A DNA stretch of 24,889 nt from a virus (IMGVR_UViG_3300036985_000471:1-24889), one strand, 5' to 3'; positions 52 through 21,313 are shown, numbered from the stretch's first letter. Notes: generated from the letters alone by a model not told the origin. Translations and numbers: made by a program.

Positions 52-1650
52 TTATTTTTGCTGGGGTAATATACGCATCCCGTTAGATAAGCTTTTAAAT
101 GGTTGAGCAGTACTTGGGTCACCTTCTCCTTGCTGTCCTTTAGCCGAGTCTACATAAGCTTGGGCTTTTTCCATTATTTCGGCATCTGTTAATTTCTCAA
201 ACAAGCTATTTGTTTTAATAATATCCACTGCTTTCATATATAATGTTTCGTCTTGGTGTGCGGTAGGTTTGGACTCTAACAGGCTTTTTAGTATAGTCTG
301 TGCCCTGGCGTTGTCAAACTCCATATCTTTAATGTCTACGGCATTTTTGTGTGTAAGTCCCTGTTTATACTGCTCTTCCATCATTTTGTTATAAGTAGAA
401 GCTCTTGCAGCGTCAATAGCTGTTTGTTTTGCTAGAATAATATCAGCAGCTTCTCTATGTCCTTGTAGCCCAGCTTTCTTATTAGCCATTTGTAGGGCCA
501 TTAAATCTTTAGTAGCCGCTTGTTCGTCTTTAGCTCCTGATTGATAGCCAGATACACCTGACAGAAGACCCGCACCTAGAGCTTGCCCCATATATGGTGT
601 CTGAGCAGATAGCATACCACCTATACCCTGAGCTAGAGCGGTGCCCCATTTATCTTTATTAGCCCCTCTAGCCGCTTCTTTAGCCATAGCCACTTCTTCA
701 GACATATCAGCTTCTTCACCCCTAAACTTCATAATATCTTCTAGAGTTTGATAAGCAGTTGGGGCGGCTTCATTACGTGCCGCTGAGCTATTTGGGTTTT
801 TTTCATGCACTACATCATCTTTGCCTATAGGAGCTTCGCTGTACTTAGGTGTTGTTTGACTATTTAACATAGTCGCCACTGCGGCGTCTGCATCATAAGA
901 ACTAGGATTTACCTCGCCTTTAGATAGGTTCTTTTTTAAACCCGCCATGCCTTGGTGGTCAGTAATTTTATCTTTAGCCTTATCTGTTGGCATGGATATA
1001 ATGGGGGGTTGTTCCCTATCTGTTAAGTCTATTTGTTGACCTATATCCCCTGTGTGTTCTTTAGACTTCTTCTCAGCTAAGTCTTTATCTAATTTAAGTT
1101 TATCTTCTTCTAAGACAGTACCATAGGCTTCTTCTCTACTTGGAGGAGGAATTAGTCCTTGTAGTTGTTTTTGATACTCTTCACCATAGTCATTAAAACT
1201 ACCAAAATACCCACCTTCTTCAAAACGCCTAACTTCCCCACCATGAGCTAGTGCAACTAATCCACCTGTAGCAGCTTGCATTGGGTCTTGTGGAGCTGGC
1301 ATGTTTTCAGGGGCTGCACCTATACCTGCATTACGCATTGGGTCTTGTTGAGCAGATTGTTGCATAGCCATTTGGTTCCCACCTACTGAAGGTAGTCCTT
1401 GTGGTGAAGTTTGTTGAAACTCCTGCAACCTTTGTTGGAATATAGTACCTTGTGGTGCTTGAGGTGGTGGAGCTTTCATTTGTTTCTGATATTGAGCTGC
1501 ACCTGCAAAAGCTACTGCTTCAGGAGAGTTAGGTTTTTGTGCTACCTGCTGTCCCATTTGCTGCATTTGCTGGGGGGTAAAGGTCTTAAACAAATCAAAA
1601 GCTTGATTAACTTGTTGGCTATAAGCTTGGTTAACTACTGGAGCACTCAT
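52..1650 (-). CDS. Putative internal virion/DNA ejection protein (532 aa)
   Basis: Q/P/M-rich N-terminus, triple GG motif (AATGGLVALAHGGEVRRFEEGG), Gly-zipper hydrophobic segment (ALAQGIGGMLSA...ALGAGLLSGVSGY) and helical C-terminus. It lies in the post-tail block where podoviruses encode ejection proteins. Confidence 0.6.
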   Translation of the reverse strand: MSAPVVNQAYSQQVNQAFDLFKTFTPQQMQQMGQQVAQKPNSPEAVAFAGAAQYQKQMKAPPPQAPQGTIFQQRLQEFQQTSPQGLPSVGGNQMAMQQSAQQDPMRNAGIGAAPENMPAPQDPMQAATGGLVALAHGGEVRRFEEGGYFGSFNDYGEEYQKQLQGLIPPPSREEAYGTVLEEDKLKLDKDLAEKKSKEHTGDIGQQIDLTDREQPPIISMPTDKAKDKITDHQGMAGLKKNLSKGEVNPSSYDADAAVATMLNSQTTPKYSEAPIGKDDVVHEKNPNSSAARNEAAPTAYQTLEDIMKFRGEEADMSEEVAMAKEAARGANKDKWGTALAQGIGGMLSAQTPYMGQALGAGLLSGVSGYQSGAKDEQAATKDLMALQMANKKAGLQGHREAADIILAKQTAIDAARASTYNKMMEEQYKQGLTHKNAVDIKDMEFDNARAQTILKSLLESKPTAHQDETLYMKAVDIIKTNSLFEKLTDAEIMEKAQAYVDSAKGQQGEGDPSTAQPFKSLSNGMRILPQQK

Positions 1651-3638
1651 TATTTTTTACCTCTTTGAACAACTTTACCATTTCTAATAAGACCACCACG
1701 AGCCCCAAAAGCATTAGCTGGGTTAGATGTATTTGTAGACGCTGAAGTGCCTCCCCCTACAGGCTGCGAGTTAACCCCCGCAAGAACCCCCGCATTAATC
1801 TGGTTAGTAGCATTAAGAGCATTAAGAGCTGTTTGTTGGTTGTTAGTTACACCTTGCTGGCTTAAATTTTGTTCTGCTTGAACTATTTTTCCCTGTGCTC
1901 CTAAAATCTCTAGACCCGCTTGGTTTTGTGCTGTGCCTGTGCTTGTTAACCCAGAAGCATTTTGTCCTACGCCTTGAAGAGCACCGATACCTTGTTGGTT
2001 AGCAGTTAAGCCCGCTTGTTGGTTGGCTTGTTGAGCGGCTAACTGTTGCGCAGTAAGTTGTTGGTTAGCTTGATTTTGAGCCGCCATATTGGTAGACTGC
2101 GTTTGCTGTTGAGTTTGCTGATTAGCCAATGCTGCTTGTAAATCATTACCCGCTTGAGTACCTTGAATACCCATTTGGGCTTGTAGGTTTTGCAGTGCCG
2201 TGTTGTAGTCCATACCTTGGTTAGCCATCATAGCTTGGATTGAAGCTGCTTGATTTGCCAGAGTAGTTTGTTGTGCGGCAGATAGGTTAGCTTGCCCTGC
2301 GGTTAGTTGCTGACCTTGTTCATTAGTAAACTGACCCATACCTGATGCATAAGCTTCTTGTTGCCCTTTAGCCTGAATATCATTCAACAACATTGCTTGG
2401 TTTCTAGCTGCTTCTGATTGTTGTATAGCTTGGCGAGACCCACCAAAGGCACCTGCTTGTACCGACTGGGCGTTTAAATTATTAAGCTCTTTTTGATAGT
2501 CCCTATTAGATTCCCTTTTCTGTATGTCTGTTACGTTTTGTTGGTAGGGGCTCATATATTTAGCCGCAGTACCCTGATCCGTCCAAGACTTAGGACCCTT
2601 CATTTGATTAGTTTTAGCAGTAGGGGCTTTTACATCATCTGGCCCTTCCATTTGATACTGGGTTAGCTTGTTGGCTTTTACATCTTTAGCCCCTTGCATA
2701 GTAGACACCTTAGCTTTTTGTGCGGCTATGTCTTTAGGTTTATACCCTGCTGCTTTTGTAAGTCCTGCTGAAGACTGTTTATACATATCCGTAGCGGTTT
2801 TAAATTGCTCTGGAGTTTGTAATTTTCTAGCCTTTTCTTGTAATGCTAAGAAGTCTTTATTTGTAGATTTATACCCGGTTATATTACCTTTTGCATCGTA
2901 CACAGGCGTAGTATCGGCAGTGACGTTTTTACCTGCTGTACCTAAAGTATTCTTTAAATTTTTATCAGCTTTAGTCTCTGCTGCTGATTTACCAGCAACA
3001 TACCCACTTTTAGCTTGCTCATCTACGTACTTTTTATAGTCTGCGGAGGACTCAGTAGCCCCTCTAGGCCTTAAAGCCATTTGTCCTGTGTTAGGGTCTA
3101 TATTACCTGACCATTTATTAGCCTTTGAGTCAGTATAATTTTGCATAAAAGACGTATCTGCCGCACTTAAGGATTTCCCTGAGTCTATTAATTTTTGTAT
3201 ACGTGCCGATTTTTGTTCCGCAGATTCTTTTTTCGCAGATGCTTTTTTCGCTGCAGGTTTACCGCCCGCTGCATACCCCTCTAAGGACATCAGCCCACCT
3301 TGAGCTGCTTTTGGTGCTGTAGGGGCAGTCGGGGCTGATACCGGAGGTGTATAGGGCTCAGTATATTGATTTTGTATAGGGACAGGTGAATATCCCCCCG
3401 CTTTCATGGCGTCCCATGCGGCTGTTTGTTCAGCACTAGAGCGTAGCATACTAGTAATTGGTCCGGGTTTATCCGCAGTCCCTAACATAAGAGCTTGGTA
3501 TACTGGGTTCTGCCACGGAGACTGGTTGATAGTCTGAGTAGATGTAGTGTTTGAAGGCGTTGCTGGTGCACCACCATAGAATCTAGGGCAGATGTACGTA
3601 AAGAATAATTTGTGAAGACTACTTGGTTTAAATATCAT
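1650..3638 (-). CDS. Putative DNA pilot/ejection protein (662 aa, Q/A/N-rich coiled coil)
   Basis: Long Q/A/N-rich helical C-terminal half with recurring ANQ/ANL units, conserved-looking YMSPYQQNV...AGAFGGSRQAI segment, Lys/Ala-rich patch (KPAAKKASAKK) and three AxGG motifs. Confidence 0.6.
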   Translation of the reverse strand: MIFKPSSLHKLFFTYICPRFYGGAPATPSNTTSTQTINQSPWQNPVYQALMLGTADKPGPITSMLRSSAEQTAAWDAMKAGGYSPVPIQNQYTEPYTPPVSAPTAPTAPKAAQGGLMSLEGYAAGGKPAAKKASAKKESAEQKSARIQKLIDSGKSLSAADTSFMQNYTDSKANKWSGNIDPNTGQMALRPRGATESSADYKKYVDEQAKSGYVAGKSAAETKADKNLKNTLGTAGKNVTADTTPVYDAKGNITGYKSTNKDFLALQEKARKLQTPEQFKTATDMYKQSSAGLTKAAGYKPKDIAAQKAKVSTMQGAKDVKANKLTQYQMEGPDDVKAPTAKTNQMKGPKSWTDQGTAAKYMSPYQQNVTDIQKRESNRDYQKELNNLNAQSVQAGAFGGSRQAIQQSEAARNQAMLLNDIQAKGQQEAYASGMGQFTNEQGQQLTAGQANLSAAQQTTLANQAASIQAMMANQGMDYNTALQNLQAQMGIQGTQAGNDLQAALANQQTQQQTQSTNMAAQNQANQQLTAQQLAAQQANQQAGLTANQQGIGALQGVGQNASGLTSTGTAQNQAGLEILGAQGKIVQAEQNLSQQGVTNNQQTALNALNATNQINAGVLAGVNSQPVGGGTSASTNTSNPANAFGARGGLIRNGKVVQRGKK

Positions 3639-21032: not shown

Positions 21033-21313
21033 TAGATTATCTTCCCACGAGTTTTGCCTTTTTTAGTAATGCCATCGACACTACCGCCTTTGTACATACC
21101 TCTGCAAGCAGAACCGCCTTTCTTCATAGCAGGAGCTGCGCCTCTCATAGCGCCTAATTGGGCTAAGTCTGGAGTTGGAGCACGTTTAGTTACTTTAGCT
21201 TTAATTGTATCTTTTTTCTTTAGTGGGAACATGCCCGCTTTTAACTTGGTCATATTAGTTTTGCCTCTAGCTTTTTCTTGAATATCGGAAATACCACGTG
21301 AAGGGCGTGTCAT
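21032..21313 (-). CDS. Small basic protein with a variant C-terminal tag (93 aa)
   Basis: Ends MKKGGSACRGMYKGGSVDGITKKGKTRGKII. Confidence 0.85.
   Translation of the reverse strand: MTRPSRGISDIQEKARGKTNMTKLKAGMFPLKKKDTIKAKVTKRAPTPDLAQLGAMRGAAPAMKKGGSACRGMYKGGSVDGITKKGKTRGKII

Follow-up and report, generated by a model that had tools for sequence, protein, structure and literature searches.

The structural gene block of IMGVR_UViG_3300036985_000471 (1-24889; the whole stretch of 24,889 nucleotides is called the window below) raises the question why one short peptide tag, with the consensus (M/Y/F/L)-(A/K)-x-G-G-x-(V/I/L/A/T), recurs on ten of its proteins. The window covers the structural module of a freshwater phage with a short tail, and all its real genes lie on the minus strand. 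The tag is a real, family-wide, protein-level signal that is limited to small basic proteins of the head block and to proteins encoded at the ejection-gene position. It is read here, with a probability of about one half, as a maturation cleavage site that would be cut just before the Ala or Lys residue, on proteins that are probably carried inside the particle. The known system most like it in working would be the maturation site of phage T5 pb2, with which the analogy is drawn.

Distribution and conservation of the tag

An earlier note on this DNA had named about 21 copies of a pattern x-[AK]-x-GG-x-[VIL] on ten proteins. All 21 were located on the minus strand, in the ten named open reading frames (ORFs), the outermost copies being F-EEGGY of the 532-aa protein (nt 1204-1224) and M-KKGGS of a 93-aa protein (nt 21107-21127). 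The pattern itself stood in part: it is enriched, with 13 matches in 35 window ORFs as compared with 2.9 ± 1.7 (at most 10) when each protein was shuffled 2000 times; of the 21 named copies, however, just 10 conform to it. The three remaining strict matches lie in a 137-aa ORF, in an HNH ORF, and in a Gly-rich stretch of the 459-aa protein. Since the strict pattern was derived from the window itself, relatives provide a fairer test.

Genes of 317 related loci were called with a crude ORF caller, sorted by zone and dereplicated, and occurrences of [FYM][AKN]xGG are given as observed versus per-protein shuffled with composition kept. The block from the major capsid protein to the adaptors gave 131 versus 8.0 (16-fold; 320 proteins, 87 of which carry the motif), and the genes after the nozzle gave 233 versus 27.1 (9-fold; 521 proteins, 128 carriers), which confirmed the enrichment expected for putative internal proteins. 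The lack of clusters that the earlier note saw in adaptors, nozzle and the visible capsid part was also borne out, with 2 versus 7.5 for adaptors and nozzle (168 proteins) and 2 versus 4.2 for the core head (289 proteins). Tail genes between adaptors and nozzle gave 4 versus 2.8 (105 proteins), the opposite strand 2 versus 1.6 (150 proteins), and terminase 0 versus 0.6 (19 proteins). With a refined pattern, the late strands of three complete relatives hold 12, 10 and 7 copies (1.3-1.6 expected) and the early strands 0, 1 and 0. A fourth record, G004 (L331-L334), was excluded from the proteome counts as it looks chimeric; it seems to join two phages, the head module of its first part differing from the adaptor region at its end. 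Tags occupy the same gene positions as in the window in HTVC023P, Pag-Yong1, and DSL-LC04. Candidate proteins for a cut are gp43, gp79, gp82 and gp83 of HTVC023P and, in Caulobacter RW, gp66 (M|ARGG).

These counts bear on the explanation that the motif arises as a by-product where disordered sequence is rich in Gly, Ala and Lys, or stems from a nucleotide signal that is translated. The carriers are indeed compositionally biased (the 371-aa protein is 22% Gly), and a few copies are poorly conserved. However, the shuffled numbers fall far below those observed, the early strand is nearly devoid of copies, and GG is kept where the flanks have diverged (see below). The motif codons follow background usage; hence the constraint acts on the protein, and a Shine-Dalgarno or other nucleotide signal is ruled out as the cause. 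Largely refuted by shuffles, orthologue conservation and codon usage, the by-product explanation is very improbable. A looser pattern also matches a conserved RFRQGGF about 25-30 residues from the terminase C-terminus in ~17 of 19 sequences (e.g. L087 2913-4373), which is probably part of the nuclease fold, and LNFGG in a 142-aa tail protein.

The tagged features of the window are as follows.

1204-1275, minus strand: three tags, A-ATGGLV, L-AHGGEV and F-EEGGYF, of the 532-aa putative ejection protein (gene 52-1650; alignment A5)
1686-1706, minus strand: C-terminal tag G-ARGGLI of the 662-aa putative ejection protein (gene 1650-3638); GG kept in 19/19 orthologues
3255-3308, minus strand: tag pair A-AQGGLM / Y-AAGGKP of the 662-aa protein; GG kept in 0.58 and 0.47 of 19 orthologues, flank identity ~0.22
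4071-4247, minus strand: tag pair K-ATGGLT / L-AHGGQI, then a shortened module paralogue, in the 371-aa protein (gene 4038-5153; profile A2, E=2.5e-19)
5962-6228, minus strand: tag Y-KDGGFL heading a ~90-residue module with tape-measure homology in the 459-aa protein (gene 5938-7317)
6334-6507, minus strand: two upstream orphan tags, Y-SVGGPV and M-ANGGYI, in the variable linker of the 459-aa protein, supported by GG conservation
17473-17493, minus strand: tag L-KKGGIT of the 76-aa basic protein (gene 17398-17628, isoelectric point (pI) 10.3); GG kept in 10/11 orthologues
19071-19112, minus strand: M-A-G-G-G start and Y-ADGGII at residue 8 of the 142-aa Gln/Pro-rich protein (gene 18684-19112)
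19112-19231, minus strand: tandem M-KKGGSA / Y-AKGGSV and shared C-terminal tail (RGDGCATKGHTRG) of the 273-aa basic protein (tail alignment)
19933-20034, minus strand: tandem K-KAGGSC / Y-ANGGSA and shared tail of a 93-aa protein (tail alignment)
20214-20336, minus strand: tandem W-KRGGKV / Y-AKGGSV and shared tail of the 272-aa Pro/Ala-repeat basic protein; GG kept in 8/9 and 9/9 orthologues
21032-21127, minus strand: tandem M-KKGGSA / M-YKGGSV and variant tail (DGITKKGKTRG) of a 93-aa basic protein; both GG kept in 9/9 orthologues

Conservation in position, as foreseen for a functional signal, differs by copy. In the 532-aa protein the GG of the first two tags is kept in 12/12 orthologues, and the three tags of the 459-aa protein retain GG in 0.83, 0.73 and 1.00 of 30 orthologue rows, as compared with flank identities of 0.14, 0.09 and 0.33. 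Three copies are weakly kept, namely FEEGG of the 532-aa protein (0.50 of 12 orthologues) and AAQGG and YAAGG of the 662-aa protein.

M, Y, F and L predominate just ahead of the tag; its first residue is usually Lys in head-block copies, whereas copies after the nozzle usually begin with Ala. Copies lie at most 40 residues from the C-terminus in 66% of head-block cases as compared with 3% after the nozzle, the median distance from the N-terminus is 74 and 304 residues, respectively, and tandem copies are most commonly spaced by 8-9 residues. None of the ten carriers gave a whole-protein Pfam or PHROG match (0/10). They had been called unrelated, which is partly wrong: tandem tags together with a basic C-terminal tail are common to four of them (the 273-, 93-, 272- and 93-aa proteins), and two share the module. 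A tail of the form G-x-A-x-[KR]-G-x-T-[KR] occurs in 47/86 head-block carriers versus 6/234 non-carriers, and the head-block carriers have a median pI of 10.3. An Atlas search with this tail returned unnamed clusters only. The 272-aa carrier (20214-21032, minus strand) consists mostly of tandem Pro/Ala-rich repeats (APAPKPSNKLER-like units and a longer duplicated unit), followed by the conserved tail. Genes starting with M-[AS]-x-G-G number 13 after the nozzle (0.82 expected) and 4 in the head block (0.71 expected), with 0 among 731 control proteins; removal of Met from such starts would yield the same end as the proposed cut.

The tag-headed module and boundaries mapped in other phages

The module of the 459-aa protein comprises ~90 residues (GG..GPGDGMSD..LADGEF..), begins with the tag, and includes near-invariant Asp and Glu residues. 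It is present in two carriers, in full in the 459-aa protein and shortened in the 371-aa protein, where it spans residues 293-361, lacks the GPGDGMSD stretch and has Ala in place of the conserved Glu. In some homologues the GG of the module itself has decayed. The module matched 14,540 cluster representatives at E<=1e-3. It matched two copies in the tape measure gp16 of mycobacteriophage Douge (PDB 8ZDO), with E=1e-4 in one search and 6.5e-6 in another, and its orthologue in Caulobacter phage RW matched 64 phage records at E<=1e-3, with most of the 40 listed being tape measures. Comparison with phage lambda gpH gave a weak match (hhalign probability 37%, E=3.6e-4), with phrog_3547 E=0.03, and with the JBD30 tape measure (PDB 8RK3) E=0.42. 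As judged by sequence comparison, the tag-headed module is homologous to siphophage tape-measure proteins. In Douge, JBD30 and lambda gpH, as in the window, the tag is followed by GPG..SDS..GEF; these are tail rulers, which show nothing comparable to the orphan tags of the small basic proteins. The text of PMC13033339 that was available reports no cut for Douge, and in JBD30 a cut is only predicted, at residue 1066 (PMC11445458). The carriers themselves failed the test as tape measures, i.e. long rulers of a long-tailed phage: they have 76-662 residues and belong to a genome with SU10-type adaptors. A search among longer homologues returned family members only.

The differences between the two zones could mean that two things have been pooled, the head-block KKGG being part of a duplicated basic DNA-binding tail and the AxGG of the ejection zone representing remnants of the tape-measure-type module. 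The tail and high pI of the head-block carriers, the C-terminal placement of their tags, and the prevalence of Lys in one zone and Ala in the other fit this proposal, as does Caulobacter RW, in which the module is present and no head-block proteins are tagged. Yet the zones agree in preferring M, Y or F at the third position ahead of GG and a hydrophobic residue at the second position behind it. In the window Y-A-x-GG is found in either zone, and Roseobacter phage CRP-901 lacks both classes. A division into two unrelated motifs is thus quite unlikely.

Boundary comparisons with T5, crAss001 and lambda were made after the fact. T5 pb2 is cut after R1127 to give pb2* and pb2C, as established by proteomics and intact mass of purified tails (PMC10038345 and preprint). 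The sequence at the cut is FVPR|AEGG, AxGG occurs twice in the 1219 residues, and R-A-x-G-G is kept in 3/3 distant T5-like tape measures aligned. The tag of the window likely marks cut sites because it matches this mapped maturation cut. As in the window, the T5 tag (A-E-G-G) heads a short GG..PG..GE module, and pb2 is an ejected virion protein; the T5-type arrangement, x-A-x-G-G at the head of a module in a putative ejected protein, was found in the window. T5 differs in having one site, in one siphophage tail protein, with Arg before the cut, whereas the window has 21 copies on ten proteins of a short-tailed phage, and in its relatives M, Y, F and L are commonest before the tag.

In crAss001 gp45 (cargo protein 1, PF25725), an internal cargo protein in which six AxGG tags lie outside the Gly-rich N-terminal region, a portal-bound domain is resolved at 425-552 and a second piece at 214-245 (PMC10172136). 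Residue 425 is the Ala of N|AFGG, in which both Gly are kept in at least 90% of 27 crAss-like homologues, and the other tags are at 207, 261, 330, 560 and 826. Each resolved piece thus sits between tags (207/261 and 425/560). The accessible text of PMC10172136 does not discuss cleavage or the motif, and the four peptide ranges quoted there span no tag, which fits a cut or an uncut chain. The module of the window showed an hhalign probability of 0.3% or less with the PF25725 domain and had no Pfam match; PF25725 is its nearest named cluster by an Atlas score of 0.83, below that search's own bar and thus a lead only.

Lambda gpH loses ~14 kDa, with the site and enzyme stated in 2025 to be unknown (PMC12617516). 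The protein has F733-ATGG, and a cut at F733|A734 would free 12.5 kDa; the Ala of a second ATGG copy is A779.

Mature P22 gp7 begins with K-G-G-K-G after cleavage by the host OpdA (PMC8402733); here, host-protease processing exposes a Gly-Gly-rich end. The N-terminus of the 662-aa protein (3560-3638, minus strand) resembles the gp7 leader that OpdA cuts off, with a 21-residue leader followed by Y-GGAP. Its orthologues have unrelated leaders before the GG run, or are leaderless with an M-G/S-GGG start. Short peptide signals are also known on T4 internal proteins and P1 DarB, where they are single and N-terminal (PMC9024508). The tags of the window differ from the T4, P1 and P22 signals in being internal or near the C-terminus and repeated; a single N-terminal signal of the T4/P1 type failed the test, given the median N-terminal distances above.

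Two AlphaFold2 models of the module had predicted local distance difference test (pLDDT) scores of 58.7 and 67.5, the N-terminal third of the second being poorly resolved. The first had no Foldseek match in PDB, and BFVD gave uncharacterised viral proteins only; in the fold comparison of the second, which included the question of gp45 425-552, the best Z was 3.1. These predicted models are too weak to reveal an active site.

Proposed cleavage before Ala/Lys as compared with docking

If the tag is cut just before Ala or Lys, the ejection proteins would be split during assembly into pieces each starting with A-x-G-G; it is proposed that the pieces would therefore be stored apart and pass the tail channel separately. 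The head-block proteins would release basic C-terminal peptides of 20-35 residues, and the new A-x-G-G end may double as a docking or threading end. The protease may be a host peptidase, for which the maturation of P22 gp7 by OpdA is a precedent, or the module of the 459-aa protein, a candidate because of its near-invariant Asp and Glu. In favour of this reading, Y-KDGG of the window heads the module homologous to tape-measure proteins. Further points on this side are the position of the T5 cut, the start of the resolved gp45 domain at a tag, the enriched M-[AS]-x-G-G gene starts, the size of the fragment lost by lambda gpH, and the P22 precedent.

Adenovirus protease and African swine fever virus (ASFV) pS273R, virus-encoded cysteine proteases, recognise a Gly-Gly consensus on internal and basic core proteins and cut after GG. 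This register had been offered as a model for the tag; with the T5 site as the guide it is probably wrong for the window, since the one phage cut that has been mapped, in T5 pb2, lies two residues before GG, ahead of A-x-G-G. No Pfam family of the adenovirus/ASFV-kind cysteine proteases was found in 30 window proteins or in 60 of the 91 called ORFs of the 99%-complete relative G001, many ORFs being unannotated.

Several points weigh against cleavage before Ala/Lys. Only one mapped site, that of T5, backs the register, and the position just ahead of the putative cut is not constant, with Arg in T5, Asn in gp45 and M/Y/F/L/A/K in the window. At the place of the T5 Ala, most head-block copies show Lys (81 K versus 57 A), and cutting would not call for tandem copies spaced by 8-11 residues. 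The module profile gave no significant match to T5 pb2C or crAss C1, and the link to the T5 and crAss boundaries is therefore carried by the short tag. The gp45 boundary, which is modelled, can equally mark a docked, uncut strand, and its authors take the two pieces as one continuous chain (PMC10172136). According to the lambda paper, gpHC starts near residue 690, not 734 (PMC12617516). The same 60 G001 ORFs include no free protease family, only an S74 fibre chaperone and an intein. Neither the module nor tagged head-block proteins occur in CRP-901, although its capsid belongs to the same family, and the motif is absent from the TP901-1 tape measure; hence, the motif is not universal, and judging from CRP-901 and RW the system is dispensable in some kin. 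The literature search, which took in the accessible parts of PMC12014285 and bioRxiv 10.1101/2019.12.14.876532, found no cut and no virion proteomics for the phage family. It likewise found no description of the motif or its cleavage, most subscription papers lying outside the search; its base also includes the accessible parts of PMC10713586 and PMC8954989. TP901-1 was rejected as a second mapped cut site, since the available text of PMC5099701 contains no cleavage data and the protein lacks the motif.

Much of the same evidence can be accommodated by an uncut docking strand and hinge, in which the bulky residue and the Gly-Gly turn bind a groove of the scaffold, portal or module and gather prohead cargo by avidity. 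Multiple and tandem copies, most often 8-9 residues apart, suit avidity, and the conserved bulky residue on each side of GG suits a binding strand. In gp45, order in the portal-bound domain begins with the tag, the 60 G001 ORFs covered include no free protease family, T4 and P1 are known to use capsid-targeting peptides, and loading of the P22 ejection proteins requires the scaffold (PMC9024508, PMC8402733). Docking leaves the T5 cut exactly before Ala unexplained, however, and the T4 and P1 signals are single and N-terminal. The same tag-plus-module occurs in tape measures, which are assembled in tails and do not meet capsid or scaffold; therefore capsid docking, which the earlier note had proposed as one role of the motif, cannot be the general one. 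As an account of the tag, docking without a cut is the main rival, and somewhat unlikely.

The widest form of the cleavage reading is that podophage ejection proteins, crAss cargo and siphophage tape measures share one unrecognised polyprotein code, in which a single mechanism, a host peptidase or the Asp/Glu module, cuts ahead of A-x-G-G. This extension is put forward tentatively and is held to be less probable than the cut in the window's own family. In 28 loci with the module, the other downstream proteins have 67 tags versus 17.7 expected, as compared with 0 versus 1.3 in three loci without it, apparently of one lineage; this sample is too thin to use.

Gene neighbourhood and meaning for the phage family

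The untagged genes that place the carriers in the structural block are the following.

8336-10438, minus strand: 700-aa virion structural protein at the nozzle position, preceding the ejection-gene block (phrog_3287, E=5.7e-69)
16547-17227 and 17973-18677, minus strand: two SU10-type adaptor genes, which interleave with head-block carriers (PF24175, E=1.8e-25 and 2.3e-09)
24411-24889, minus strand: C-terminal half of the HTVC023P-like major capsid protein, assigned by identity to the HTVC023P capsid protein

The capsid fragment shares 61% identity with its counterpart in Pelagibacter phage HTVC023P and 65% with that of Pag-Yong1; HTVC023P-type relatives are podoviruses (bioRxiv 10.1101/2019.12.14.876532). 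Pfam matches in the window comprise the two SU10-type adaptors, a lysozyme, an S74 fibre and a SET-domain gene, and the 700-aa protein was found via PHROGs; its label as nozzle is drawn from gene position and the annotation of relatives. In the complete relative G001, terminase comes first, followed by portal, GroES, scaffold, two small genes, capsid and head block, then adaptors, tail genes, nozzle, four carrier genes and a 2513-aa protein with transglycosylase, ADP-ribosyltransferase and LPD38 domains. On the basis of this gene position, the four large carriers are read as putative ejection proteins, and the small basic proteins are likewise presumed to be located in the virion. Most of the relatives examined have a GroES gene placed between portal and scaffold (L323 6911-7309 and related loci), and their head module shows no evident prohead protease gene.

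Several other genes lie among these. The minus strand carries two endonuclease-like insertions, namely a 502-aa DUF723 repeat protein 3' of the capsid gene (22774-24282) and an HNH gene after the nozzle (7656-8339), and the nucleases after the capsid gene differ among relatives. Near-identical 53-aa membrane proteins (MKIEWSEASTKRG...) at 10930-11091 and 13923-14084 (minus strand) flank the fibre genes as a recent duplication. A 111-aa protein with two CxxC pairs (17637-17972, minus strand), which matched no family, is conserved and in relatives follows the 234-aa adaptor. Among the ejection genes, a 263-aa gene (5150-5941, minus strand) fuses an N-terminal part like the PHROG 'tail fibre adhesin' to a SET domain; its counterpart in some relatives consists of the first 134-148 residues only. 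A conserved 137-aa gene (3635-4048, minus strand) immediately precedes the 662-aa gene in most relatives, and its product could modify new N-termini. CRP-901 has a GNAT-annotated gene at this position, and blastp gave no link between the two. Sequence words of the window are present in RNA runs at 5-7% and are better represented in freshwater and sediment DNA.

The loading and release of internal proteins in short-tailed phages are poorly understood, and the motif offers exact, testable bonds in culturable phages (lambda, crAss001, HTVC023P and Caulobacter RW). The phage family is very abundant, with ~6,900 stored viral stretches estimated to match its capsid patterns in addition to the 14,540 module representatives. 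A shared processing or loading signal, if true, would mark many hypothetical proteins as virion cargo. If the code of one mechanism were also true, the lambda gpH site would be F733|A734, crAss gp45 would be a set of pieces and not one stretched chain, and the motif would provide a portable tag for processing or loading engineered cargo.

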